Shown in pieces: positions 6,195 through 19,781 of a stretch of 64,000 bases of DNA. A model generated the notes under the pieces. It worked only from the letters and a program-made list of their open reading frames with translations. It made no database searches and had not been told where the DNA came from. The position numbers were made by a program, and so were the translations under genes. This DNA comes from a bacterium (lineage in GTDB: Bacteria > UBA8248 > JACPRG01 > G963555815): positions 960,001 to 1,024,000 of the forward strand of contig CBDHDG010000006.1 in NCBI GenBank assembly GCA_965261595.1. The letters are read 5' to 3'. The stretch's first letter is position 1, and each line of letters opens with the position of its first letter.

Positions 6195-9100
6195 TCAATC
6201 CGAAATATCCTCTTCCGGTTGATCGGAGATGGTAGCGCAGGCTTCCAGCGCGATCAACACCCTTTCCAGCATCTCCCGGCGTTCCGACTCCTCCGGCGGC
6301 GCGGGAACCCGGAATGTCCTCGGGTCGAGGAACTTCAGGCCCGGGGTGGCCAGGAATTCCGGCGTCAGCTGATAGGGCCGATCCTCCGGATGGAAGGTGG
6401 CCCATCCATCCGAGACGGTGAGCTTTTCCACGCCGGCCCGGGTGGCGAGGATGCGCAACCGGGCGGTCCCGAACAGGGATTCGGCCTCGGGGGGCATGGC
6501 GCCGAATCGATCGGCCAGGGCGCTCCGGAGCGCTTCGAGCTCGCCGGTGGTCTGCGTATCGGCGATTTCGCGGTAAAGCTCCAGGCGCTGATTCTGTCCC
6601 GGCACATAGTCTTCCGGGAAGGAAGGCCGCACACCCAAGGACAACTCGGGCTCGATTCGCCGGACGGCCCGCTCTCCCTTCACCCCCTCGACCGCTTCTT
6701 CGAGCAGCCGGCAGTAGAGATCGAATCCGACGGCCGCGATGTGGCCCGACTGCTCGGCCCCGATGATGTTGCCCGCTCCCCGGATCTCGAGGTCTCGGGC
6801 GGCCAGACGGAAGCCGGCGCCCAGCTCGCTCAGCTCTTCCAACGCCTTCAGTCTGCTCCGGGCCGTCGGGGTGAGGCTCCGCCCCACCTGCACCAGAAAG
6901 TACGCGAACGCCTGCCGATCCGACCGCCCGACGCGCCCCCGGAGCTGGTAGAGCTGGGCGAGGCCGTACATCTCGGCTCGGTTGACGATGATGGTGTTGG
7001 CATTGGAGATGTCCAGGCCGTTCTCGATGATCGTCGTGCAGAGCAGGACATCGAACTTTCGATTCAGGAATCCCACCATGGCCCCGTGAAGCTGCTTTTC
7101 CCGCATCTGGCCGTGGGCGACCGCCAAGCGCAGCCCCGGGACCAAACGGTGGAGATATTGGGCCGTGGCGTCGATGGTTTCCACGCGGGGATGAACGAAG
7201 AACACCTGCCCCCCCCGCTCCCGCTCCCGGGTCAGGGCCTCCCGGATGACGCGGTCCTCGAACGGACAAACGTAGGTGCGAACGGCCAGCCGGTCGGGGG
7301 GCGGGGTGTCGATGACGCTCAGGTCCCGGATTCCCATCAGGCTCATCTGGAAGGTCCGGGGGATGGGCGTCGCCGTCAGCGTCAACAGATCCACGGTCGC
7401 CCGGAGACCCTTGAGCTTCTCCTTGTGGGCCACGCCGAAGCGCTGCTCTTCATCCACGACGATCAGGCCCAGCTCCCGGAACTTGACGTCGGACTGGAGC
7501 ATCCGGTGCGTCCCGATGAGGATATCCACCTCCCCGGCGGCCAGGCGCTTGAGAACGTCTTTTTGCTCGGCGCGGCTCCGAAACCGGGTCAGGCATTCGA
7601 TAGACATCGGGTAATCGGCCAAACGCTCCTGAAAGGTGACCCGGTGCTGCTCGGCCAGGACGGTCGTCGGCGCCAGGACGCAAACCTGCTTTTTGTCCAT
7701 CACGGCCTTGAAGGCCGCCCGGATGGCCACTTCCGTCTTTCCGTACCCTACGTCTCCGCAGATCAGCCGATCCATCGGACGCGATTTCTCCATGTCCGCG
7801 ATCACATCCTGAATGGCCTGGACCTGACCCGGGGTCTCCTCGAACGGAAAGGAAGCCGCGAACTCCCGGGTCCAGTGATCGTCGGGAGAGAACGTGAACC
7901 CCTCGGCGACCTGACGCCGCGCCGCCAGCTTCATGAGCCCCTGCGCCATGGCCAGGACAGCGGCCCGGGTCTTTTTCTTCGTCTTGGCCCACGCCGCCCC
8001 CCCCAACCGATCAATCCTCGGGGTTCCCTGGCCGGCGCCCATGTATTTTTCAACGAGGTTCAGGTTCTCCATGGGGACGAAGAGCTTGTCTCCGCCCTGG
8101 TACTCGATCACCAGGAACTCCTGCCCTACCCCGGCCAGGCCGATCCGGTCCACGCCCTGATAGATGCCGATTCCGTAATCCCGATGGACGACGTAGTCTC
8201 CCGCCTGGATCTCGTGGAAGGCCGCCTCGAAAGCCTTTCTTCGGGGAGGCGGGGCCGCCCTCCGGCGCACGGGCGTGTAAAAGATCTCTTCTTCCCGAAT
8301 CGCGACGCAATCCAGGTCCTCGCTCTGGAAGCTCTCGGAAAGCCGGCCGACCAGGAGGACCGCATCCGGCTCTTCGGATTCGGAAAAAAACCAGCCGCCG
8401 ACGTCGGGGCCCTCCAGGATGGAGGCCCCCAGCTCGAACTCCCGCAGAATCTGCTGGAGCCTCAGGGCCTGCGTTCGGTGGACGGCCACGATCGCCACCC
8501 GCAGTCCTTTGTCCAGCCAAATCTTCAGTTGGCGCACAAACACCGGAACCCGGCCCTGAAAGGCGCCGGGGCGTCCCGTATTGAGATGGAGGTGCGGTTC
8601 GCCGTCCTGACCTTCGCCCGCTCCCAAGCCGAGGGAGGGAAGGTCGATCACGGGAGAGTCCGGCGCGGCCCGCGCCGTCAGGGCGTCGAGCACCGCTCCC
8701 GGCGGGAGGGAGAAATCCTCAAGGGGAAACGGGACCCCCGCGCGGCCGGCGTCCACGGCCTCCAAGAGCCTTTCCCAATGCGCTTCATCCGCCTCCGGCA
8801 TGGCGTCCGGCTCGGACAGGGCAACCAGGGCGTCGGGCGGCAAGGCCTCCACGGCGGCGATCAGGTCGTCCCGAAGCAGGGGCGCCAGGGTTTCAAACCC
8901 CGGGAAGTGGCCATCCTCCAACAACCGGTCGGCCAGAAGCTCAAACCGGTCCCGTTCACCCGGTTCCCCGGATTCGGCCCAATCCCGCAGCCTCCCGGCC
9001 GCGCGCGTTCGGGCTTCTTCATCGAGGATAACCTCCCGGGCGGGCATGATTTGGACCCGCTCCAGCCGCTCGACCGATCGCTGATCTCCGACCTGGAAGC

Positions 9101-9731
9101 GGCGCAGGGAGAAAACACCGTCCTCGTCGAACTCGATCCGGACGGGAAACTCCGACTGGGGCGAAAATACGTCCACCAGCGATCCGCGAACCGCGTATTC
9201 CCCCTCATCCTCCACCACCGGACTTCGGTGATAACCCGCGCGCAAGAGGTCTTCCAACAGCTCGTCCCGATCCAGGGGATCGCCCCGCTCCAGGTCGATC
9301 GCGGCTGAGAGAATCGCCTGGGGGGGGATCAGCTTTTGCGCCAAGGCGGAAAGCGAGGTCACCGTCAGGAAGGGCTCTCCCTCCGACCAGGCCGAAAGGG
9401 CGGTGAGCCGCGCGCCGACTGTTTTTGGGCTGGGGGAGAGCGGCTCGAGCGGCGCCAGATCCCAGGGGGGGAAGATGAGGACGGGGGGTCCGGCGGGGTC
9501 CTGGAAAAAACAGAGATCCTCATAAAGACGGAGGGCGGCGTCCCCGGTCGGGGTCACGGCCACGATGCCGCACCCGGCGCCGGCCCGGCGCCTCTCGCGC
9601 AGAAGGGACGTCAGGTAAAGCGCGCGCGCCGCGTCGGTCGTGCCGCTGACGCACAGTCGGGAGACGCCGGAAGGAAACCGGGTCCATTCGGACAGACGGG
9701 ACGTCCGGGAGGGTTCGGCCGGGGCCTTCAT
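6195..9731 (-). CDS. mfd: Transcription-repair coupling factor
   Basis: VRGSLVDVF, CarD/TRCF GDYVVH..YGIG, GDVGYGKTEVA, DEEQRFG, QLRGRVGRS, RDLEIRGAG. Start at MKAPAE, overlapping the aroE stop (ATGA). Confidence 0.96.
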   Translation of the reverse strand: MKAPAEPSRTSRLSEWTRFPSGVSRLCVSGTTDAARALYLTSLLRERRRAGAGCGIVAVTPTGDAALRLYEDLCFFQDPAGPPVLIFPPWDLAPLEPLSPSPKTVGARLTALSAWSEGEPFLTVTSLSALAQKLIPPQAILSAAIDLERGDPLDRDELLEDLLRAGYHRSPVVEDEGEYAVRGSLVDVFSPQSEFPVRIEFDEDGVFSLRRFQVGDQRSVERLERVQIMPAREVILDEEARTRAAGRLRDWAESGEPGERDRFELLADRLLEDGHFPGFETLAPLLRDDLIAAVEALPPDALVALSEPDAMPEADEAHWERLLEAVDAGRAGVPFPLEDFSLPPGAVLDALTARAAPDSPVIDLPSLGLGAGEGQDGEPHLHLNTGRPGAFQGRVPVFVRQLKIWLDKGLRVAIVAVHRTQALRLQQILREFELGASILEGPDVGGWFFSESEEPDAVLLVGRLSESFQSEDLDCVAIREEEIFYTPVRRRAAPPPRRKAFEAAFHEIQAGDYVVHRDYGIGIYQGVDRIGLAGVGQEFLVIEYQGGDKLFVPMENLNLVEKYMGAGQGTPRIDRLGGAAWAKTKKKTRAAVLAMAQGLMKLAARRQVAEGFTFSPDDHWTREFAASFPFEETPGQVQAIQDVIADMEKSRPMDRLICGDVGYGKTEVAIRAAFKAVMDKKQVCVLAPTTVLAEQHRVTFQERLADYPMSIECLTRFRSRAEQKDVLKRLAAGEVDILIGTHRMLQSDVKFRELGLIVVDEEQRFGVAHKEKLKGLRATVDLLTLTATPIPRTFQMSLMGIRDLSVIDTPPPDRLAVRTYVCPFEDRVIREALTRERERGGQVFFVHPRVETIDATAQYLHRLVPGLRLAVAHGQMREKQLHGAMVGFLNRKFDVLLCTTIIENGLDISNANTIIVNRAEMYGLAQLYQLRGRVGRSDRQAFAYFLVQVGRSLTPTARSRLKALEELSELGAGFRLAARDLEIRGAGNIIGAEQSGHIAAVGFDLYCRLLEEAVEGVKGERAVRRIEPELSLGVRPSFPEDYVPGQNQRLELYREIADTQTTGELEALRSALADRFGAMPPEAESLFGTARLRILATRAGVEKLTVSDGWATFHPEDRPYQLTPEFLATPGLKFLDPRTFRVPAPPEESERREMLERVLIALEACATISDQPEEDISD

Positions 9732-10612
9732 CCTTTCCCCCCTTCGTCCAGGAGGGCCGCTTCCATCACCTTTCGAACCTTTTCGACCGGAAGCTCCGCA
9801 CCGGTCCAGATCCGGAAGTTTTCCGCCCCCTGAAAAACGAGCATCCCGAGGCCGCCCACCGTTTTTGCTCCCCGGCCGGCGGCGGCCCGAAGAAATGGCG
9901 TCTCCAGGGGCCGATAGACAATGTCCACCACCACTTGGCCGGGGCGCAGACAGCCCGGGTCGAGGGGCGGCGGCCCTTCGGCCTCCCCGTCCCGCCGGAT
10001 CAAACCGAGGGAGGTGCATTGGATGACGGCGTCCGCCATCGTCGCGGCGCTCTCCGCTTCTCCGCCCCTCAGCGGAACGGCCCGGACGTCGACGGAATCG
10101 AACGTCTTTCGGATCCACCCGGCCAGGGTCCGCGCCCGGGACAGGGTGCGGTTGGCAATGATCAGCGCGCGCGCCCCTTGGGCGGCCAGCTCCGAGGCGA
10201 TCCCCCGGGCCGCGCCCCCCGCCCCCAGGAGGAGGAAACGCCCTCCGCGGGGATCCAGGTCCGCCTCCTCCCGTAAAGAGCGGACGAAACCGGCGCCGTC
10301 GGTGTTGTGGCCGACGAGTCGATCACCCTCCCGAAAGACCAGGTTCACCGCGCCGATGCGCCGGGCGGCCTCGGTCAGCTCGTCCAGGTGGCCGATGACC
10401 GCTTCCTTGTGGGGGATGGTGAGTGCGACTCCGTGGATTCCCAGCGCGCGAATCCCGAGGAAGGCATCGCCCAAACGCTCGGGGGGAACCTCGAAAGCCA
10501 AAAATCGGTAGGGAAGGCTCAATTCCGCCAGCGCCGTATCGAACATCAACGGCGAAAGGGAATGCCCCAAAGGAAAACCCATCACCCCCAGGGCGCGCTC
10601 CACGGATGGCAT
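9728..10612 (-). CDS. aroE: Shikimate dehydrogenase
   Basis: HSLSP, TIPHK, IGAVN, NTDG.GF, GAGGAAR, DIVYRP..T, GLGMLVFQG. Confidence 0.95.
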   Translation of the reverse strand: MPSVERALGVMGFPLGHSLSPLMFDTALAELSLPYRFLAFEVPPERLGDAFLGIRALGIHGVALTIPHKEAVIGHLDELTEAARRIGAVNLVFREGDRLVGHNTDGAGFVRSLREEADLDPRGGRFLLLGAGGAARGIASELAAQGARALIIANRTLSRARTLAGWIRKTFDSVDVRAVPLRGGEAESAATMADAVIQCTSLGLIRRDGEAEGPPPLDPGCLRPGQVVVDIVYRPLETPFLRAAAGRGAKTVGGLGMLVFQGAENFRIWTGAELPVEKVRKVMEAALLDEGGKG

Positions 10613-10623
10613 CGGTGAGAAGG

Positions 10624-12024
10624 CTACGGCAGGTCGTTCTTGCTGATCAAAAAATCCCGGACGAGATTGCTCTCTGTCTTGGGAAGTGGAACGGACGATC
10701 CGTTGAGCTCGACGACGGTGCTGGTGGCGTTCCCTATCGTCAGAACAAACGTCTTGTTCCCGCTCCAGCGCCGGCTCTCCCCTTCCAGCAGGAAGATCTC
10801 ATCCCGCTGATTTCCGTCCACAATCACGCGCAGCCAGGTGTCCCCCTTGGCCGTGATGTTCAGAACCAGAGGCGACTGCCAGGAGGATGGGGCGGTTTTT
10901 TTCTTGAGGGTGACTTTCACCTCGGCGTTGTCCACAACCTTTTCGGTTACGGCCTCGCCCGCCGAGGCCGCTCGCGCGTCCGGAGGGGGCGGGGAACCGG
11001 ACTTCGGGATCGTCTCCGCCACCGCGGGCGTCGGCCGGCTGTCCCCCTCGGCCGCGGAGGAAGACGGAAGGATCCCGTTCTTCTTCTCGGCCTGGACTTC
11101 GGGGGTCTTCGGGTTCCGGTCCGCTTTTGGCTTGTTGACCTTCACGGCGGTTTTGGCTTCGGAGACCTTCGGAATTCGGTCCGTCTTCGGCCGGTTGATC
11201 TTCGCGGCGGCTCTGGCTTCGGAGGCCTTCGGCCCGGCCGGGTTCACCACCTTCGGAGCGGCCGGACGGCGCGCCTTTCGGGGGACGGCGCCCACGGCCT
11301 TCTCCGCCGGGGGCTTTTCCCCCTGATCCGGCCCGAGCTTCCACCCTTCGACGTAGAAATAATATCCCACGCCCAGCACCAGAAGGAAGAACGCCGCGGC
11401 GGGGATCCGTGTGCGCAAAGCACGCCGGGACTCCGTGAGCCGGGCGCTCCATTCCGGGAAGATAAAATCGGCCTCTTCCTCAGCTTGCTGGGCGGGGGGA
11501 TGGAACCGGGAGAGAAGGTCATCCGCACTGAGACCGATTTCCGCCGCCAGTATTTTCAGGAACCCCCGGACGATGGGCGTATGCGGGACGTCTTCATATC
11601 GGTCCTCTTCGAGCGCCGATATGATCCGCCCTTTGATCTTGGTGGTGGAAGCCAACTGATCGATGGTGATTCCCGCCGCTTCCCGATGTCGCCGCAGGTA
11701 TTCGCCCAGCGGTTCAGGGGCGGGTGAATCGGCTTCCTCCGTGGAGGGGGGGAGGGGGACATCCTCATCCGGCGCTTTTTCCGTCTGTGAATCCGGGAAA
11801 GACGCGTCCCCCACCGGAGTGAACAGCTCTCCGGGAAACTCATCGTCCAACTTCCCCGAATCCTCATCGGAGACTTCAAGACCCGTCAAACCAGGCTGAA
11901 TCCTATCCGAATAAGCCCCGCTCGAAACATCGGCCGAGGTCTCCCGCGGGGTCTCTTCCGGCGATTGGCCGTTCTGAGCGCCCGTGTCGGATTGAGAATT
12001 CAGATGCTCATCCATGTCACTCAT
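10624..12024 (-). CDS. RodZ-like protein (HTH, TM helix, DUF4115-like C-terminus)
   Basis: LGEYLRRHRE..GITIDQLASTTKI..RIISALEE HTH, one TM helix, Pro/Lys-rich linker, C-terminal TWLRVIVDG...IGNA...NG. Confidence 0.8.
   Translation of the reverse strand: MSDMDEHLNSQSDTGAQNGQSPEETPRETSADVSSGAYSDRIQPGLTGLEVSDEDSGKLDDEFPGELFTPVGDASFPDSQTEKAPDEDVPLPPSTEEADSPAPEPLGEYLRRHREAAGITIDQLASTTKIKGRIISALEEDRYEDVPHTPIVRGFLKILAAEIGLSADDLLSRFHPPAQQAEEEADFIFPEWSARLTESRRALRTRIPAAAFFLLVLGVGYYFYVEGWKLGPDQGEKPPAEKAVGAVPRKARRPAAPKVVNPAGPKASEARAAAKINRPKTDRIPKVSEAKTAVKVNKPKADRNPKTPEVQAEKKNGILPSSSAAEGDSRPTPAVAETIPKSGSPPPPDARAASAGEAVTEKVVDNAEVKVTLKKKTAPSSWQSPLVLNITAKGDTWLRVIVDGNQRDEIFLLEGESRRWSGNKTFVLTIGNATSTVVELNGSSVPLPKTESNLVRDFLISKNDLP
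11098..11232 (-). repeat. Imperfect 60-bp (20-aa) tandem repeat in the RodZ-like linker
   Basis: PKASEARAAAKINRPKTDRI / PKVSEAKTAVKVNKPKADRN / PKTPEV; the DNA lines at 11101, 11161 and 11221 align. Confidence 0.75.
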
Positions 12025-12273
12025 CCATCCACCTTCCCATTCGCCCGAAAGGAGACTGGCCCCCCCTACGGGCAAGCAGATCCCCTGATAAGTCGCGCCA
12101 CCCTTTTCTACAACGAAAAATGTACTACACTTGCAAAAGGAATGTCCAATAAACTAATCACTTAACTCTATATGACGCCTCCGGCCCCACACTTCAATCC
12201 TTCCGGAAAATTCAACGTAATTTTTACATATTGAATATTCGGGACCGTGAATGGCGGACCATCTAAAATTCCA

Positions 12274-12305
12274 TTGACTCCGTACCCGACTCCGGGGATT
12301 ATCTT
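12274..12305 (+). promoter_or_regulatory. MerR-type promoter/operator (merOP-like)
   Basis: TTGACT-CCGTACCCGACTCCGGGGAT-TATCTT. The -35 box and left half-site match Tn21/Tn501 PmerT (TTGACTCCGTAC). Long 19-20 bp spacer with an imperfect CCGTAC-N4-CTCCGG dyad. Confidence 0.85.
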
Positions 12306-12366
12306 GACGATCAGCCTTTGACCACGCCGATCGGCGACACGCCTTCTCCCCTAGGAGCTGAGGATA

Positions 12367-12612
12367 ATGGAACAGAAAGAGGTTACCCTATACACATCGA
12401 GCTTGTGAGCGTCTTGCAGAGGCGTGAAAGAGTTTCTTTCACATCACAGCATTCCCTACCAGGAGCACTTGATCGACCAAGACCAGGAAGCGATGAACAC
12501 CTTGGTTGAGAAAACCGGACGCAAAGCCACTCCCGTGCTTCTCATTGGCGAGGAAACCGTGGTGGGCTTTGACCGTCGAAAAATCTCGGACCTTTTGGAG
12601 ATTGGTCGATGA
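12367..12612 (+). CDS. Glutaredoxin/NrdH-like predicted selenoprotein (UxxC)
   Basis: MEQKEVTLYTSSL-U-ASC-RGVKEFL...TGRKATPVLLIG..VVGFD. In-frame TGA at 12406-12408 replaces the first Cys of CxxC. RBS present; SECIS-like hairpin follows. Confidence 0.88.
12424..12442 (+). promoter_or_regulatory. Candidate bacterial SECIS element
   Basis: Perfect 8-bp stem GTGAAAGA-GTT-TCTTTCAC starting 15 nt after the TGA; loop begins with G. Confidence 0.7.
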
Positions 12613-12968
12613 ACGCTTCAGAGCGAAGGCTCCGCTGCCCTGGCTGCGAAATGGACATTCCAGTCCCGTGGGACGCCAAGAACGGCGACGTTACTGAGTG
12701 TGAGAACTGCGCGGGTGTTCTGTTTCGCCTCTCCGAACAGGACGGCGGGGACATCCTGCGGCTCGTGCTGCTTGTCTCGTGTCCTTTCTGCGAGGAGACA
12801 ATCCCGGTGGACGATAACACGCCCGAGGGGACCGTCATTCGTCACGGGGGGGCGGAATTTTCGCTGACGAAGGAGTTCGGCGCTTTCTCGCTGGAGCTCG
12901 CCGGCGGCCAAAGACCCGGCCTGGTTCCGGCAGCGGACGCGGACAAAGCGCGAGGGACGGCAGGTTGA
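12609..12968 (+). CDS. Small Cys-rich tandem zinc-ribbon-like protein
   Basis: CPGC...CENC...CPFC...H. First half resembles the LysW-type ribbon but lacks the EDWGE tail. ATGA overlap with the glutaredoxin gene. Confidence 0.7.
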   Translation: MNASERRLRCPGCEMDIPVPWDAKNGDVTECENCAGVLFRLSEQDGGDILRLVLLVSCPFCEETIPVDDNTPEGTVIRHGGAEFSLTKEFGAFSLELAGGQRPGLVPAADADKARGTAG

Positions 12969-13267
12969 AGCCGCAAAGATCAATCACGGGAAAAATCATG
13001 CTGGGCGCGGCCTTCTTTCTGTGCCCCTGCCACCTGCCCATCTACCTGGCCCTGTTGGGCGGAACGGCCGCGGGCGCGCTGCTCTCCGAGAACGCGTACA
13101 CCGCCGGGGCCGTCCTGGCCCTCGCGTTCCTCGCGGCGCTCGTTCTGGGGTTGCGCATGCCGGGGAAGAACATTTCCAAGGCCGGGGCCGCCTCGGAGCG
13201 GGACCCATCCGATACCGGAGGGCAACCTCTCCGGCACGGTCGAATCCGGCGGGCGCCCCTTGGATGA
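12965..13267 (+). CDS. merE: MerE-like mercury transporter
   Basis: LCPCHLPIYLALLGGTAAGALLSE matches MerE (TCPCHLPIL...AGTTAGAFLGE). Two TM segments. Start could be the ATG at 12998. Confidence 0.8.
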   Translation: MKPQRSITGKIMLGAAFFLCPCHLPIYLALLGGTAAGALLSENAYTAGAVLALAFLAALVLGLRMPGKNISKAGAASERDPSDTGGQPLRHGRIRRAPLG

Positions 13268-13279
13268 GGGAGAATCGCG

Positions 13280-13618
13280 TTGCGCTTGAAAGAGGTATTT
13301 CCCGGAGCGGCCGGCGTCCTGACTTCCTTGGGGGCCTCCATCTGCTGCCTCCTCCCGCTCGCGGTGATTTACCTGGGACTCGGAACGGGATCCTTCATGG
13401 CAACGACCATGAAGTACCGCCCCATCGTATTTCCATTGGGGGTGATCGGCCTCGGCGCCGGTTACTTCCTTTACTTCCGGGAGCGAAAACGCTGTCGACG
13501 CGTGGCGTGCAGAATGGCGGGCTCCAAAATCAACCTGGCCTTGCTGGCGGCGGCGACGATCATCATGGCGGGTGTCGTGTGGGCCGATTTCTTCTCGGGC
13601 GTCCTGGCCATGATGTGA
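13280..13618 (+). CDS. merT: MerT-like mercury transporter
   Basis: LGASICCLLPL TM1 Cys pair, YRP, cytoplasmic CRRVAC pair, three TM helices. Confidence 0.82.
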   Translation: MRLKEVFPGAAGVLTSLGASICCLLPLAVIYLGLGTGSFMATTMKYRPIVFPLGVIGLGAGYFLYFRERKRCRRVACRMAGSKINLALLAAATIIMAGVVWADFFSGVLAMM

Positions 13619-13635
13619 CGCAAAAGGGGGAAGCG

Positions 13636-13968
13636 ATGTCAGGCGTGCATCGTCCGTGGAATGGGTTGAAATGTGTGGTTCTGGCGGCCGTCTTCGCCAT
13701 GGCGCTCGGCGGGTGCGAAGGAGACCCGGTTCCATCGGCCGAAGCCGGGGAGCGGGTGACTCTGAGGGTTTCGGGGATGACGTGAGGCGCCTGAGCGGTC
13801 ACCGCGAAACCAGCCTTGGAAAGGCTGGATGGAGTGAGAAAAGCCCGGGTGAGCCTCTCGAAGGGAGAGGCGTACGTCACGTATGACCCAAGCCGGGTCA
13901 CGGTGGCGCAGATGATTGCGGCCATCAACCGCCTGGGGTTCAAAGGCGGCATGAAAGAAGGATCGTAG
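13636..13968 (+). CDS. MerP-like HMA lipoprotein with two predicted selenocysteines (GMT-U-GA-U)
   Basis: Signal peptide with LGGC lipobox, then VTLRVSGMT-TGA(13783)-GGC-GCC-TGA(13792)-AVTAKPALERLDGVRKARVSLSKGEAYVTYDPSRVTVAQMIAAINRLGFK. Read-through gives a complete HMA fold, in the merP position after merT. Confidence 0.88.
13810..13828 (+). promoter_or_regulatory. Candidate bacterial SECIS element
   Basis: Perfect 8-bp stem CCAGCCTT-GGA-AAGGCTGG starting 15 nt after the second TGA; loop begins with G. Confidence 0.72.
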
Positions 13969-14073
13969 GCGGGCCTCGATGGGTCCGCGGAGAGGATTTC
14001 CGCTGATCGGATACGGCCGATGGTCCGGGTGGTCTCCTTCGGCCGGGATACGTTGAGTGGGGGCATGGACAAT

Positions 14074-14301
14074 ATGGAAGATAGAAAGCTGCTTCGCACG
14101 GGAGGCGCGGGGACGGTTGTTGCCGCGATTTGCTGTTTCACGCCGGCCCTCGTCCTGCTGTTCGGGGTGATGGGTCTATCGGCCTGGGTCGGTTGGCTGG
14201 ATTACGTCCTTTGGCCCGCGCTTGTGATATTTGCCGGAATGACGGTCTATGCCCTTATCCGGCTGAGGAAGAAACCATCCGTCCACCGCAAAGGGACCTG
14301 A
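14074..14301 (+). CDS. merF: MerF mercury transporter
   Basis: KLLRTG..GTVVAAICCFTPALVLLFG..GLSA..GWLDYVL.PAL..F matches MerF. Start 14065 or 14074. Confidence 0.88.
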   Translation: MEDRKLLRTGGAGTVVAAICCFTPALVLLFGVMGLSAWVGWLDYVLWPALVIFAGMTVYALIRLRKKPSVHRKGT

Positions 14302-14802
14302 TTCAAAGAAAGGCCGAATAATGAGGTTTTGGTCTTTTCTTCTTTCCATCAAGACACATCTCCCTTCGCCAAGACCAAAACTTTCCTCGCGAGCCGATCA
14401 AACCAATAGTTGAGGGGTCCAAGATGGCTGAGTCCTTGCGTTCCAAAGAGGGTTCCTTGACATTGATTGCCTTGATCGCGGGAGGGGTCTTGCCACTCCT
14501 GATCGTTTTTGGCTCCGCCCGTCTACTGCCCATGCCGACCCTTTTCTGGGCTGTCGGCGTCCCGGCGGAAATCGTTCTTTTTGGGGTTCTGCTCTACGCT
14601 CGTTCGGCCGGACCGGAGCGCTTGTATCGGAGGCTTTGGGTGGGGTGATCGGCGGCGTATTGCTCACCTTGTCATTGGATGCCGTCCGAACCGCAGGGGT
14701 CAACATCGGTTACCTTCCGGATTCCGTGTCGATGTTCGGGCGCTTGGAGTTGACCCGGTTTGGTGGACACCTGATGATTTGGGGGTAAAGGAGGTGTTCA
14801 CG

Positions 14803-15117
14803 ATGCCACAGACTCACCCACGCTATCCAATGGAGTTCCGCTGCCAGATGGTAGAGTTGGTCCGGGCGGGACGCACGCCCGAGGCGCTGGCGCACGAGTT
14901 CGAGCCCTCGGCGCAGACGATCCGCACCTGGGCCCATCAAGCCGACGTTGACGAGGGGCGTCGCAAAGACGGGCTCACGAGCGATGAGCGGGAGGAGTTG
15001 CGCCGACTTCGCCGCGAGAACCGACAGCTCCGCCAGGAGCGGGAGATCTTAGCAAAAGCCGCGGCCTGGTTTGCTCGGGAGACCGATTCGATCCCGTCCG
15101 GATCTACGGGTTCGTGA
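14803..15117 (+). CDS. IS3 transposase OrfA
   Basis: YPMEFRCQMVELV...TIRTW...LRRENRQLRQEREIL.KAAAWFA. Confidence 0.9.
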   Translation: MPQTHPRYPMEFRCQMVELVRAGRTPEALAHEFEPSAQTIRTWAHQADVDEGRRKDGLTSDEREELRRLRRENRQLRQEREILAKAAAWFARETDSIPSGSTGS

Positions 15118-15965
15118 GGGCGAACCAGGCCATGTATCGGACCGCCACCATGTGCCGGGTGCTGGGCGTCTCCTCCAGCGGCTACTACGCGTGGCGCAGG
15201 CGCGCGCCGTGTGCCCGCTCGTGTGCCGATCGGGCGCTCACCAAACGCATTCAGGCGATCCACGAGCGTTCTCGGGGGACTTACGGCGTGCCGCGCGTCC
15301 ATGCCGAGTTGGAGGCTGAGGGAGTGCGTGTGGGCCGCAAGCGCGTCGCCAGGCTGATGCGTGGGGCGGGACTTGCGGGCGTCAGTCGGCGCAAGGGAGC
15401 GCGCACGACGCAGCGCCGGCAGGAGGCGCGGCCGGCCCCTGATCTGGTGGACCGCAACTTCACGGCCGAGGCCCCCGACCGGCTGTGGGTGGCCGACATC
15501 ACCTACGTTCCGACATGGGCGGGGTTTTTGTATCTGGCCGTGGCGCTCGATGCGTTCAGCCGGCGCATCGTGGGGTGGTCGATGGCCACACACCTGCGGG
15601 CCGAGTTGGTGCTCGACGCGCTCGACATGGCGCTGTACAAGCGCCGTCCCCGGGCCGTCATCCACCACTCCGACCAGGGCAGCACGCAGTACACCTCGGT
15701 CGCCTTTGGGCAGCGCTGCCGGCAGGCGGGCGTGCGTCCCTCCATGGGTTCGGTCGGGGACTGCTACGACAACGCGCTGTGTGAGAGCTTTTTCGCCACG
15801 CTGGAGTGCGAGCTCCTCGCTCGCCACAGTTTCCGCACCCGGGCCGAGGCGCGCATGGAGGTGTTCGGGTTCATCGAGGGCTTCTACAACCCGCATCGTC
15901 GGCACTCCTCCATCGACAACCTGTCACCCGTTAACTACGAAAGGAGACAACAACGCACACCCTGA
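15114..15965 (+). CDS. IS3 transposase OrfB (DDE)
   Basis: WVADITY, HHSDQG..QY, DNALCESFF, YNPHRRHS. Confidence 0.93.
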   Translation: MRANQAMYRTATMCRVLGVSSSGYYAWRRRAPCARSCADRALTKRIQAIHERSRGTYGVPRVHAELEAEGVRVGRKRVARLMRGAGLAGVSRRKGARTTQRRQEARPAPDLVDRNFTAEAPDRLWVADITYVPTWAGFLYLAVALDAFSRRIVGWSMATHLRAELVLDALDMALYKRRPRAVIHHSDQGSTQYTSVAFGQRCRQAGVRPSMGSVGDCYDNALCESFFATLECELLARHSFRTRAEARMEVFGFIEGFYNPHRRHSSIDNLSPVNYERRQQRTP

Positions 15966-16289
15966 AAACCCAAGTGCTTAACTCTCCACGAAACCGGGGT
16001 AAGTCCATTGCGTTTGGAGTGGTCTATTCAATCCTTTTTGGAAAGACCCGATGGTGGGGCGCCGTGCTTTATAGCGTCTTCTTTGTAGAGCTTGGCATGA
16101 TGACCCTTCCACCGATGGCGAAAATGATGGGACCTTTCGGCGTCAACAAGTTCGGCACAATTTGGAACGGGATGTTCATAACCACATTGCTCGCTCACGC
16201 CGCGATGGGGGTTGTGCTCGGTGTTGTGATTCAGAAGTGGGGAAAGCACCCCGGTTTGTTTTTCTCAAGTAGAAGCATAGGCGCGTAGT

Positions 16290-16538
16290 GTGGTGCTATC
16301 GGAACTTCATATCGAGGGCATGACGTGACCCAAGTGCGTCAAACGGGTCCGTGAGTCCCTGAAAAAATCCCCGGGAGTTCAGGACGTCCAAGTTTCTTTG
16401 GAGACGGGACGGGCCGTTATTTGGATGAAAAAAGGAAGCCTACCCACAGAGGACCTCCTCGAACAGGTGGTGGAAGCGGCCAAAGGCGCCTTCCATTCCT
16501 ACGTCGCCCGCTGGGTTAAACCCCCCTCTTCGAATTAA
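16290..16538 (+). CDS. Cytoplasmic HMA-domain predicted selenoprotein (GMT-U-PK-C)
   Basis: GTG start; LSELHIEGMT-TGA(16326)-PKCVKRVRESLKKSPGVQDVQVSLETGRAVI... to TAA. A CopZ/NmerA-like fold after read-through. Not in the ORF track. Confidence 0.82.
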
Positions 16539-16687
16539 GCCGCATCCGCTGATTCGGAGAGTCATCAGCACCAAATCCCGAACCCTTTTCGGACTCCACG
16601 CAGATGAGACAATCAGAGAGACCCCGGCTGTCATCCAATGCTCCTCGAAGCCGATCTGGATTTTGAGGGAAGCGTTTGGAGAGCGAC

Positions 16688-18044
16688 ATGGCTTTAAAGT
16701 CATACGACCTCATCGTCATCGGAACGGGGTCTGCGGCCTCTGCGGCAGCATCCGAATGCCGCACCGCCGGGTGGACCGTGGCGGTTATCGATTCCCGTCC
16801 TTACGGGGGGACATGCGCCCTGCGCGGCTGCGACCCCAAGAAGGTGCTCGTCGCCGCGGCCGAGGCCCTCCACTGGGGGCATCGCTTGAGGGGCCGCGGG
16901 GTTCGTCCCGGCGATGCGCGGATCGACTGGCCCGAGTTGATGGACTTCAAGCGCACGTTCACCGAATCCGTGGCGCAGAGCCACGAGCGGTGGTTCGCCG
17001 AAGTCGGGATCGACGGATACCACGGGCGGGCGAAGTTTATCGGCCCCGTCTCTGTTCAAGTCGGCGGCGACGATCTGGAGGCCAAACACGTCTTCATCGC
17101 CTCCGGCGCCATGCCGGCCAGGCTCGGGATCCCGGGAGAAGGGCATCTGATCGCGAGCGAAGACTTCCTTGAGCTGGACGAGCTGCCGGAGCGTATCGTT
17201 TTCGTGGGGGGCGGCTACATCTCCATGGAGTTCGCGACCGTTTCCGTCTGCGCCGGAGCTGAGGTCACCGTCCTTCACCGGGGTCCGCGACTCCTGCGTG
17301 GATTCGATCCCGGCTCGGCGGACTTGGTCGCGGAGGCGGCTCGCGGGAGCGGCATCGACCTGAAGTTGGAGACTCGGGTCGAAAGCATAACAAAGACTGC
17401 CGGCGGCTTTGTCGTTGAGGCATCCTCACCCGCGGGATCGCAAACGGTTGAAGCCGACTTGGTGGTGCACGGCGCCGGTCGGGTGGCTGAGATTGAGGAT
17501 CTCGACCTGGGAGCGGCCGGCGTGGAGCGGGGGAAGCGGGGAGTATTGGTGAACGAGTATCTGCAAAGCACCTCGAATCCGGCGGTCTATGCAGCGGGAG
17601 ACGCGGCGCGAAACGGAAGGACAGCCTCTCACGCCCGTGGCAGGGGTCGAAGGAGGGGTTGTGGCAGCAAATCTATTAAATGGGAACAAAGTTAAGCCTG
17701 ATTACACCGGAACGGCAACAGTGGCATTCACATTGCCGCCGATTGCCGCGGTGGGACTGAGAGAAGATGAAGCCAGGAAGAAGGGGCTCAAGTTTCAGGT
17801 GAATTTCCAGGACACGTCTGGATGGTATTCGACACGGCGCATGGGCGAGAAATACTCGGCATCCAAGGTGTTGGTCGAGGAAGACACGGGGCGGCTGCTC
17901 GGTGCGCACCTCCTCGGGCCGTCTGCGGATGAGCTGATCAACCTCTTTGCGCTTGCCATCCGCCACGGTCTCACCGCCGAGGGTCTAAAGGAGGTGATCT
18001 TCGCGTATCCGACGCACGCGTCTGACGTGGGTTATATGGTCTGA
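16688..18044 (+). pseudogene. Class I pyridine nucleotide-disulfide oxidoreductase (glutathione-reductase-like), frameshifted near 17608
   Basis: YDLIVIGTGSA, GGTCALRGCDPKK, GGGYI, VYAAGD in one frame, then QPLTPVA...GAHLLG...YPTHASD in another. The single extra base may be real or an assembly error. Confidence 0.85.
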
Positions 18045-18100
18045 AGAGCACGCCCTTTGTCCAATTTCGTGATGAGAAAGGGTCATTTGGGAGATGTCAA

Positions 18101-18717
18101 ATGGAAACCTCAAAATTGCCTCAGCTCAGAGAGCATTTCAATCAGGCATGCGATTCCGTGAGGGTTCTTACAATCCTCTCTCCTACCTAACCCGTATGTC
18201 ACTACGGGCATGGAGTTGTCCGGAAGCTCTTCGAGGAGATTGACGCGAATGCGCTCAAGGGTTTTTCAATATGGCTTCCCATCATGGACGGGGACAACGC
18301 CGATGCCGCGAGGGCCGAATCAGAGAATTTCCCGGATGAACGGGTAGAGCACAGTTGGGATTCCGAAGGACAATTTGGCCGGCTCTTTGCGAAGTTTCTC
18401 AATTTGAAAGGTGTCGCGTGGGATGTTCACTTGCTCTACGCGCCGGGTGTCACCTGGGGTGTGGATGAGCCGCCCAAACCTGCATTCTGGATGCACCAAC
18501 TTCCTCCAGTAACGGGAGCCGATGGGAAACTTCTTTGAACCCAGGTAGATTTTCACACGAGCTGATGAATCTCCTTGGAAGAGAGGATCCGCATATGGCT
18601 TGGGATATGGCCTTTATGTTGCACGTTGGCGGTATTGGCGGGGTCATGAGGGAGAGGGCTCAGTCTTCACTGGAAGAGGTCCTCAAGGCCGTCGATCCTA
18701 CGAAGGAAGGACCGTGA
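18101..18717 (+). pseudogene. Thioredoxin-fold protein with TAA at the predicted Sec position (SPT*PVC) and a frameshift near 18535
   Basis: METSKLPQLREHFN...VRVLTILSPT-TAA(18188)-PVCHYG... is in frame with the 18284 ORF (WLPIM...WDVHLLY...W...PAFWMHQL). The C-terminus continues in a shifted frame. Confidence 0.7.
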
Positions 18718-18721
18718 ATCG

Positions 18722-19150
18722 ATGAAGAATTGCCCGGAGGTTCCTATGGAATCCTTGACGATCGAAAAGGTCGCCCGCGGGGCGGGTGTGAACGTCGAGA
18801 CGGTTCGCTACTACGAGCGCAGGGGGCTGATCGAGCGGCCAACCAGCCGGCGGGGGGCTTACCGGGTCTATCCGTCCGAGACCGTCGGCCGCATCCTGAG
18901 CATCAAGCGCGCCCAGCGGCTCGGGTTCTCCCTGGATGAGATCAAAGAGCTGTTGGCCATGCGATCGGACGCCCGGGCCCGGTGCGGCGACGTGCGCGTC
19001 CAGGCCGAGCGGAAGATGGCCGAGATTGAGGAGAAGATCAAGGCCCTGCGGGCCGTGAAGAAATCGCTCGGCAAGCTCGCCGACGCCTGCCGGAGGGAGC
19101 TGCCTGTGACGGAGTGCCCGATTCTGAAAAACCTGAGCGGGGTTTCCTGA
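18722..19150 (+). CDS. merR: MerR-family metal-responsive regulator
   Basis: LTI..VA..AGVNVETVRYYERRGL, IKRAQRLGFSLDEIKELL. Three Cys (RCGD, ACRR, ECPIL) at Hg-MerR-like positions. Start could be 18746. Confidence 0.88.
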   Translation: MKNCPEVPMESLTIEKVARGAGVNVETVRYYERRGLIERPTSRRGAYRVYPSETVGRILSIKRAQRLGFSLDEIKELLAMRSDARARCGDVRVQAERKMAEIEEKIKALRAVKKSLGKLADACRRELPVTECPILKNLSGVS

Positions 19151-19237
19151 AGGTGAGGTGAATCGCTCCCGCCCTCAGGACCCCGTCGCGTCTCCGGCCC
19201 CCCGGCGGCCCGGCCCCCCGGTCGCCCCGCCGCCGAG

Positions 19238-19456
19238 TCAGGATTCTTCACCTTTGGGCAGGAACTGAATCGTCAGAATTTCTCTGTCTTGGCCCGAAAA
19301 TGGGCCGTATCTGTCCACGTAGGGCCTGAGGGGGAAAAAGATGGATTTCCGGCCTTCACATCGGGGTTTCGAGTCGGCAGAATGACCATCCCGGCACGGG
19401 ATCACCTTGATATGGGCCACGAGGGTCCTGATCCAGCGATTTGCCTGTGCCTTCAT
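19238..19456 (-). CDS. Small hypothetical protein (72 aa) downstream of the c-di-GMP riboswitch
   Basis: Strong AAGGAGG RBS before MKAQANRW...; no family recognised. Confidence 0.5.
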   Translation of the reverse strand: MKAQANRWIRTLVAHIKVIPCRDGHSADSKPRCEGRKSIFFPLRPYVDRYGPFSGQDREILTIQFLPKGEES

Positions 19457-19516
19457 TGGGTCCTTCCTCCTTTGCACTCCGGTGGTCGGAGAGGAAGTCC
19501 GCCCCTCTCCTCATTC

Positions 19517-19606
19517 TTCGGCGGGCCGGCTGTCTGGGGGGGAGATGATTTCAGACCCAGACCCGTGCCTTTGCGTCCCGGCCTCTCGACCGGTTTGCCC
19601 TTATCG
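19517..19606 (-). ncRNA. Cyclic di-GMP-I (GEMM-I) riboswitch
   Basis: Minus strand reads GGGCAAACCGGTC-GAGA-GGCCGG-GACGCAAAG-GCACGGGTCT...GACAGCCGGCCCGCCGAA: GNRA tetraloop plus the GEMM consensus blocks. Confidence 0.88.
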
Positions 19607-19781
19607 AAACAAGGGTCACTCAATTCCGCAGGTGCGAATCCTTTCGAGGAATCACGAAAATAATCTATCCATACGATACTTATCGGCGGGAAGGGCGACG
19701 GGCTTTAGCCCGAAATTCCAATCCAAGGAAGGGGCGAACCCTATTTCACCATTTCGGCGATCACGCGGATCGGGTCCGCCT

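Follow-up and report, generated by a model that had tools for sequence, protein, structure and literature searches.

We describe a pair of neighbouring genes in a 64,000-nucleotide stretch of a bacterial genome (contig CBDHDG010000006.1, positions 960,001 to 1,024,000; the whole stretch is referred to as the window, and positions are counted from its first letter). The first gene encodes a free-standing HMA domain with a putative selenocysteine (Sec, U) in its metal-binding motif, and the second a class I flavoprotein disulfide reductase with the redox motif CALRGC. Both belong to the same selenoprotein-rich mercury-type (mer) operon. The reductase, whose gene is broken, falls in an already described clade of short NADPH- and FAD-dependent enzymes of ~450 amino acids (aa) with a CxxxxC site, the GbsMerA or merK-type clade. 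The features of the pair are the following, all on the forward (+) strand.

16290..16538 (+): free HMA gene, candidate selenoprotein (GMT-U-PK-C), 82 aa, cytoplasmic; translation with TGA = U, Pfam HMA
16326..16328 (+): in-frame TGA in place of the first metal-binding Cys codon of GMTCxxC, predicted to be read as Sec; translation, homologues
16345..16389 (+): candidate selenocysteine insertion sequence (SECIS) hairpin, beginning 19 nucleotides (nt) past the U of the UGA; minimum free energy fold, -17.2 kcal/mol, weak evidence
16688..17608 (+): reductase, FAD/NADPH-binding part, frame 1, 307 residues; Pyr_redox_2 E 1.7e-53, 8K40 E 1.1e-76
17609..17609 (+): one-base insertion, approximate site (GCGGCG-C-GAAACG), frame +1; alignment to intact relatives
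17610..18044 (+): reductase, end of the FAD domain and dimerisation domain, frame 2, ending FAYPTHASDVGYMV; Pyr_redox_dim E 2.7e-24

The free HMA gene and the frameshifted reductase gene

With the TGA at 16326-16328 translated as Sec, the small protein reads VVLSELHIEGMT-U-PKCVKRV..., and the Pfam HMA model (PF00403) matches its residues 6-63 (E 3.4e-13; 50.2 bits, gathering cut-off 24.8), so that the match runs across the TGA. An in-frame stop at 16278-16280 leaves no space for a signal peptide, and the protein is consequently without one. The GTG start lies one base past the stop (16286-16288) of an upstream membrane-protein gene, and 149 nt separate the HMA gene from that of the reductase. 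A first-pass annotation, made from the letters alone, had proposed an 82-aa cytoplasmic HMA selenoprotein just upstream of the reductase, and both the protein and its position agree with these results. The protein stays below the cut-off of every NCBIfam CopZ, UxxU and MerP model (40.3 bits against a cut-off of 95 for NF041115, UxxU_metal_bind) and reaches only 38.6 bits against the N-terminus of PRK13748. A word-indexed protein search with the free HMA returned no candidate; an exhaustive HMA search gave 3732 matches at E<=0.001, the top 150 of which, ranked by summed score, were all multi-HMA proteins, and no orthologue set could be derived from them.

We regard the TGA as a probable Sec codon and the HMA gene as a candidate selenoprotein gene. 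The genome encodes SelA, SelB and a tRNA-Sec with the anticodon TCA, and the HMA genes of relatives have either Cys or TGA at this position. Seven loci (L016, L017, L082, L085, L099, L100 and L137) have TGA at the first Cys of the HMA gene neighbouring the reductase, while in L029 it stands at the second Cys instead. The 81-nt fold after the UGA is no better than that of shuffled sequence (z -0.71), and Rfam, scanned over positions 12000-19300 at E up to 10, yielded no match of any kind, SECIS-type included; since the candidate hairpin is not significant, the argument for Sec depends on where the codon lies, on the machinery and on the homologues. These two structural results favour a different reading, namely that the TGA is a genuine stop and the HMA gene a dead remnant. 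We consider this highly improbable, because the TGA falls exactly at the first Cys of the motif within a full-length HMA match, because TGA also occupies Cys positions in the glutaredoxin (Grx) and MerP-like genes of this operon and, in other strains, in the gene of an SPT-U-PVC protein described below, and because of the seven relative loci and the complete Sec machinery.

The reductase carries its redox motif GGTCALRGCDPKK in residues 40-52, with Cys43 at 16814-16816 and Cys48 at 16829-16831. Alignment finds both the NmerA domain and the C-terminal Cys pair absent from it (the C-terminus reads ...SDVGYMV), so that the features reported by the first-pass annotation, including the CALRGC site, stand. 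The frameshift that it had also noted can be located by comparison. The closest database relative, P0005, is 96% identical, intact and 451 aa long; where such intact relatives read YAAGDAAETEGQPLTPVA, the window reads ...GDAA / R..., and therefore has one extra base at about 17609. The frame-1 open reading frame (ORF), continued past the insertion, ends at a stop at 17693-17695. With this insertion the window gene is a member of the short MerA-like clade that has no intact reading frame.

The frameshift was checked over positions 15980-18600 in Logan contigs of four sequencing runs from four studies, one of which, near-identical, may be the source of the window. Contigs of all four runs span 16006-18600 unbroken and differ from the window by 0 to 7 substitutions and a single indel each, and in every run this indel is an extra T after 18533, with none at 17609. 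The missing T is a small error in the window sequence. The break at 17609 is not an artefact of this assembly alone, because all four runs carry it. It is very unlikely, in our judgement, that this break is nevertheless a sequencing or assembly error and the reductase intact in the cell: the window does have one error-like indel, at 18533, and another reductase gene of the genome is likewise divided over two frames, but contigs of the four runs, from four studies, have no indel at 17609, and no homopolymer run is present there. Inspection of GCG-GCG-C-GAA also led us to reject programmed +1 frameshifting, there being no slippery or homopolymer sequence and +1 re-pairing of the tRNA being impossible. 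We read the reductase gene as a pseudogene fixed in this lineage. As it is frameshifted in all four runs, the HMA protein and the reductase cannot work here as a reductase system.

The other divided gene (G000:C7:11328-12697; loci L146/L148) encodes a second flavoprotein disulfide reductase and seems to be frameshifted; it matches the MerA model in two frames, its pieces covering model positions 1-241 and 236-455. Across the genome the MerA model TIGR02053 gave 7 matches, none over the cut-off (best 324.3 against 454.45 bits), and no other candidate Hg(II) reductase was found in the genome.

The island around the pair

The operon runs from a Sec-containing Grx through a LysW-like zinc ribbon, MerE, a MerT-like protein, MerP with a UxxU motif and MerF to a DUF6789-like membrane protein, followed by the free HMA gene, the reductase, a protein whose redox-like motif holds TGA or TAA, and a three-Cys MerR. 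The features outside the pair are listed below.

12367..12612 (+): glutaredoxin selenoprotein (SSL-U-AS-C), with TGA in place of the first redox Cys codon; the first of the island's genes
12609..12968 (+): LysW-like double zinc-ribbon protein; Pfam Zn_ribbon_LysW
12965..13267 (+): MerE-like membrane protein; Pfam 35.1 bits, cut-off 22.8
13280..13618 (+): MerT-like membrane protein; match under every cut-off
13636..13968 (+): MerP-like lipoprotein, two in-frame TGA three codons apart (GMT-U-GA-U); NF041115 98.1 bits, cut-off 95
14020..14301 (+): MerF; Pfam Transport_MerF E 5.6e-20
~14790..16005 (+): IS3-type insertion in the DUF6789-like gene, left end approximate; HTH_Tnp_1, HTH_21, rve
16006..16288 (+): DUF6789-like membrane-protein gene, 3' part; DUF6789 E 0.0025, under cut-off
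18101..18538 (+): protein of unknown family, redox-like motif SPT-(TAA)-PVC
18722..19150 (+): MerR-type regulator with three Cys (C88, C123, C132); Pfam MerR-DNA-bind, MerR_1

Several members of the island recur elsewhere. Grx, LysW-like and reductase genes occur together in L026, L099 and L100, and the Grx and LysW-like genes also in G008, the only other genome of the window's phylum that has the reductase family; the Grx beside the LysW-like gene has the U-A-S-C motif in L099 and U-x-x-C in G008. A role as a further small metal carrier is conceivable for the LysW-like zinc ribbon. In the MerP-like gene, about 38 nt past the first TGA, there is a hairpin with a GGA loop. The best match of the regulator, TIGR02051, reaches 128.8 bits (cut-off 150.85), and its three Cys are spaced as in Tn501 MerR. 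Just downstream of the island, on the minus strand (19516-19608), there is a c-di-GMP-I-GGC riboswitch aptamer with 70 bits against a gathering score of 59.

The SPT-x-PVC protein has no Pfam or NCBIfam match, and relatives of it occur near the reductase family in L044, L055 and L077. Its codon x is TAA at 18188-18190 in the window and TGA in three of the four runs, which suggests a Sec codon turned to a stop in the window's strain. When the T present after 18533 in all four runs is restored, the ORF comprises 205 aa and extends to about 18718, just before merR. The DUF6789-like gene is interrupted by the IS3-type element, which is present in the window and in run X15; the contigs of runs X17, X18 and X20 diverge upstream of 16006, at the right end of the insertion sequence. 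A search of the window allowing up to 2 mismatches did not find the sequence that precedes 16006 in these other strains, and the left junction of the element remained unmatched; a deletion may therefore accompany the insertion. The 5' part of the same gene (14424-14788, +) consists of two overlapping frames that meet at a run of G near 14640, which may be another frameshift or an assembly error. With the reductase frameshift, the IS3 insertion and the TGA-to-TAA change, the island is decaying.

The reductase family and its neighbours

Among solved structures the best match of the reductase is GbsMerA (8K40/8K41), with E 1.1e-76 for the N-terminal half and 1.2e-35 for the C-terminal half, the next match of the N-terminal half having E 6.3e-44. 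The intact relative P0005 stays below the cut-offs of all NCBIfam equivalog models (316.8 of 480 bits for the glutathione reductase model PRK06116, 305 of 454.45 for MerA TIGR02053, and 282.3 of 408.8 for Lpd), and the two halves of the window gene score 198.1 and 90.2 bits against TIGR02053. The redox motif is unchanged in every one of the 15 relatives aligned. All family rows listed in the alignment end in [FY]xYP[TS]xxxD..YM[LV], with Tyr at the position of the catalytic His and with neither a Cys pair nor NmerA, and the motif Y-P-T-x-A-S-D is common to the window and all of them. The Y-P-T of the family aligns to H-P-T in E. coli Gor and Lpd, to H-P-S in RclA and to Y-L-T in canonical MerA, whose rows end ...LSCCAG, a tail that the family rows do not have. 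The His-Glu dyad of disulfide reductases is thus replaced by Tyr and Ser, the Tyr standing for His as in MerA. The clade as a whole has neither NmerA nor the Cys tail. When the first-pass annotation described the enzyme as lacking the hallmarks of MerA, it was right about NmerA and the Cys tail, but one hallmark is kept, namely the Tyr that replaces the His of glutathione reductase and Lpd.

The comparison with MerA, Gor and Lpd that had been suggested was made in a quick tree of 49 hand-picked rows (LG+G4), with branch support from the Shimodaira-Hasegawa-like approximate likelihood ratio test (SH-aLRT) only. The family forms a single clade of 33 rows (SH-aLRT 100), apart from Gor, Lpd and RclA and separate from the three rows of canonical MerA (99). 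This speaks against the suggestion that the enzyme is a newly split MerA. That the enzyme is not an ordinary glutathione reductase, on the other hand, is supported. An ordinary housekeeping enzyme that lies near metal genes by chance might be proposed on the grounds that the top-scoring NCBIfam model is that of glutathione reductase and that some sources label relatives with this name. We find the proposal scarcely credible, since the score is far under the cut-off, the catalytic His and with it the His-Glu dyad are absent, the family occurs in only 2 of 51 genomes of the phylum, and mer genes are linked to it in 44 of 124 loci (see below).

Several known systems resemble the window pair in part. 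MerK is said to have been described by Petrus et al. in 2015 as a glutathione-reductase-like gene of alphaproteobacterial mer operons, downstream of merA. Like it, the family consists of such genes in mer operons, with canonical MerA alongside in 13 loci, whereas the window has no canonical merA. We infer that merK, whose protein is known from Xanthobacter, and the short MerA-like clade are one family. Canonical MerA (Tn501/Tn21 type; TIGR02053) shares NADPH and FAD, the CxxxxC site and the Tyr at the His position, and has in front an HMA module with GMT-C/U-xx-C that is fused to the enzyme there and a free gene in the window. It differs in forming a separate clade, in the TIGR02053 cut-off that the window enzyme does not reach, and in its C-terminal Cys pair, which receives Hg from NmerA and is missing as an acceptor in the window enzyme. 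NmerA reportedly works in trans as well, a result ascribed to Ledwidge et al. in 2005. E. coli RclA, a Cu(II) reductase, and Gor have the same fold and CxxxxC site, and RclA is likewise without NmerA and Cys tail, but both keep the His (HPT or HPS) where the family has Tyr.

The closest characterized relative is GbsMerA of Gelidibacter salicanalis (PDB 8K40/8K41; Pardhe et al. 2023, PMC10587081), an Hg(II) reductase without NmerA and without the C-terminal Cys-Cys. According to the parts of that article used here, it oxidizes NADPH at 474.7 umol/min/mg with HgCl2, 236.5 with Ag, 97.3 with oxidized glutathione (GSSG) and 69 with Mn; its His-Glu dyad is replaced by Tyr437/Ser442, and the Y437F variant is inactive; the second tyrosine of MerA is not kept (Val96); and the authors, whose article is the only one with a structure from this clade, state that the mechanism calls for further work (PMC10587081). 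Its operon comprises ArsR, a MerT/P fusion, the enzyme and a hypothetical gene, and selenoproteins are not reported in those parts of the article (PMC10587081). The window enzyme shares with GbsMerA the length of ~450 aa, the CALRGCDPKK motif, the Y-P-T-x-A-S-D end and a place after MerT/HMA genes; it differs in being only ~45-50% identical, in its frameshift, and in the free cytoplasmic HMA gene that precedes it.

HMA selenoproteins are also catalogued. NCBIfam has NF041115 ('UxxU metal-binding (seleno)protein') and NF045683 (a MerT/CopZ fusion selenoprotein), which share with the window proteins the HMA fold and Sec at a metal-binding Cys. The MerP-like protein of the window passes NF041115, whereas the free HMA protein is UxxC, cytoplasmic and under the cut-off of every such model. 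A published table lists MerT selenoproteins, a 'putative mercuric reductase PRK13748, UxxU' and 'ZntA UxxC', the last being the HMA domain of a P-type ATPase (excerpt of PMC9312934), and MerT-family selenoproteins are mentioned elsewhere (excerpt of bioRxiv 2022.07.06.499078). The name 'GDCCVxC domain-containing (seleno)protein' is in use in PGAP annotation.

The reductase family is very widespread. At least 593 stretches in species-representative genomes matched two search patterns, at least 580 of which were confirmed, and 142 plasmid records hold a copy. Within the window's phylum the family is confined to the window genome and G008 among 51 genomes, which fits its acquisition together with the island. 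A metagenome scan with P0005 yielded 45 relatives at up to 64% identity, save for one 38-residue fragment at 71%. Neighbourhoods were surveyed in 125 loci, the best 80 from genomes and these 45 from metagenomes, in 124 of which the reductase could be placed; profiles were built locally from the window's own proteins and a GDCCVxC protein, and close relatives of 65-96% identity were left out. A mer-type gene (HMA, MerT/F, MerR, MerE or GDCCVxC) lies within 3 kb in 44 of the 124 loci, in accordance with the link between enzyme and mer genes that had been suggested; by family, the counts are 32 loci for HMA, 32 for MerT/F, 28 for MerR and 15 for GDCCVxC. For 113 loci with at least 500 nt of upstream sequence, the tested families found within 300 nt upstream on the same strand are as follows.

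GDCCVxC: 9/113 loci
HMA: 4/113 loci (MerT-fused or with a hydrophobic N-terminus in those inspected)
MerT/F: 3/113 loci
LysW-like: 3/113 loci
MerR: 2/113 loci
DUF6789-like: 2/113 loci
MerE: 1/113 loci
none of the tested families: 89/113 loci

No gene stands directly upstream of the family more often than that of the small Cys-rich GDCCVxC (seleno)protein (for example L095:5762-6004 and L166:4726-4947). Simple operons consisting of MerR / MerT, MerP, GDCCVxC and reductase (9 loci and one Tn3-borne plasmid copy) have the family member as their only enzyme. Among PGAP-annotated plasmids, one Tn3-type element carries HTH / merC, merT, GDCCVxC and reductase, and the reductase also adjoins complete mer operons. 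Plasmid pMR68 of Pseudomonas sp. K-62 (L097:5995-8780) has two tandem genes of the family or of a sister branch, and its annotation shows no mer gene within 6 kb of them.

The proposed hand-off and its alternatives

As regards a conserved link between the HMA protein and the enzyme, the survey is less favourable. A free cytoplasmic HMA gene directly upstream of the reductase was found in two family loci only, in the window and in G008, and the neighbouring HMA ORFs inspected at other loci have signal-like peptides or are fused to MerT. One further candidate, L137, was rejected as a third case and counted as MerP-like because its ORF starts with a hydrophobic segment. The HMA protein is thus only weakly conserved as a partner of the reductase. 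In G008 the reductase is intact and 60% identical to that of the window, and the gene order is Grx (U-x-x-C), LysW-like, MerF, MerT-HMA (U..U), MerE, free HMA (GMT-U-PFT-U), reductase and MerR. The free HMA protein of G008 has no hydrophobic N-terminus and is 82% identical to the MerT-fused HMA of its own operon, compared with 42% over 38 residues to the window HMA, and an HMA gene was therefore placed before the reductase twice independently, from different sources. Two such placements are a hint of function, with n=2 and both in one phylum. The two G008 copies (L156, G008:C16, ~8999-9226 and ~9546-9767, minus strand; one MerT-fused, one free) have three residues between the two TGA codons of GMT-U-PFT-U, not two. 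A limited literature search, covering titles and the beginnings of abstracts, found no report of a free Sec-containing HMA protein paired with a short reductase.

The account we favour, which we hold to be probable though well short of certain, is that of a Sec-rich mer operon with a reductase of the short clade, to which the free HMA protein would hand Hg(II) in trans, the reductase now being a pseudogene. Hg(II) would be taken up via MerP, MerT, MerF and MerE; the HMA selenoprotein would catch it in the cytosol, as NmerA does in canonical MerA, and pass it to Cys43/Cys48 and Tyr' of the reductase, which would reduce it with NADPH. Throughout this mercury uptake and detoxification system, Sec would stand in for Cys at exposed metal or redox sites. 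Such an NmerA-like hand-off in trans is a plausible possibility. Reduction of Hg(II) is the simplest role for the family, because its members are the only enzyme in simple operons and because GbsMerA performs this reaction in vitro. With the reductase gene reduced to a pseudogene and the island in decay, only the binding and transport steps can still work in this lineage.

A number of observations weigh against the favoured account. The Cys tail that NmerA feeds is absent from the reductase. Mercury binds selenolate more tightly than thiolate, so that its transfer from an Se/S site to an S/S site would be uphill. The HMA gene directly adjoins a membrane-protein gene, compared with a distance of 149 nt to the reductase gene, and its closest partner may consequently be the transporter. 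The pairing is known from two loci of one phylum, and 89 of the 113 loci have none of the tested families upstream. Neither the SECIS fold nor the Rfam scan lends support to Sec. The tree places the family beside E. coli Gor (98), although the branch is long and was flagged by the program, and canonical MerA with its CC tail accompanies a family member in 13 loci, usually directly upstream of it (the merK position), which argues that the family does something that MerA does not. Finally, the evidence for Hg(II) reduction comes from one paper, on a relative that is ~45-50% identical by an estimate from the alignment.

The last points but one lead to the main rival of Hg(II) reduction, in which the reductase has an accessory function in thiol or selenol redox chemistry (a 'merK' role). 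Its substrate might be a low-molecular-weight disulfide, or it might keep the oxidized Grx, UxxC protein and HMA selenoproteins of the operon reduced. The position beside Gor and the 13 loci with canonical MerA favour this role, as do the Grx genes of window-type operons (the window, G008, L026, L099 and L100), the GSSG turnover of GbsMerA at ~20% of its rate with Hg (excerpt of PMC10587081), and the statement that glutathione reductase genes in mer operons are 'sometimes called MerK' (excerpt of PMC11227200). We nevertheless regard it as a possibility of limited weight, because the His-Glu dyad is replaced by Tyr and Ser as in MerA, and because the simple operons hold no other enzyme and no Grx or thioredoxin that could be recycled.

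A second alternative concerns the HMA protein rather than the enzyme. It might accept, or act as a sink for, metal that the upstream DUF6789-like transporter brings into the cytosol, and it would then precede the reductase by operon order only. The single base between the stop of the membrane-protein gene and the HMA start, compared with the 149-nt gap before the reductase, is consistent with this, and DUF6789-like genes lie near the family with no HMA gene between in L121 and L133, 86 nt upstream. In G008, however, the free HMA gene precedes the reductase in a 16-kb locus without any DUF6789 match, and a role for the transporter is compatible with a role for the reductase. We consider it unlikely that the transporter is the sole partner.

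The favoured hand-off can also be extended from the window to the family. Short MerA-like reductases might be the catalytic half of modular two-component Hg(II) reductases with interchangeable small cytosolic carriers encoded beside them. In the window, as in G008, this carrier would be the free HMA selenoprotein, and at other loci a GDCCVxC protein or a LysW-like zinc ribbon; Sec in the carrier would speed ligand exchange at very low Hg. We put this forward as a speculative and rather doubtful generalization.

The type of reductase found here is already known, and it is the free HMA gene before it that appears to be an unusual variant with a candidate role. In the genome at hand the enzyme no longer functions and the island is being lost piece by piece. 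For the family, a free HMA protein or another small Cys-rich protein encoded before a MerA-like enzyme without a Cys tail provides a concrete pair with which to address how such enzymes acquire Hg(II). Genes of this kind are missed by gene callers because these stop at TGA. As the island illustrates, Sec can occupy metal and redox sites throughout a mer-type operon, in Grx, MerP, the HMA protein and a fourth protein, and this bears on mercury-selenium antagonism in microbes.

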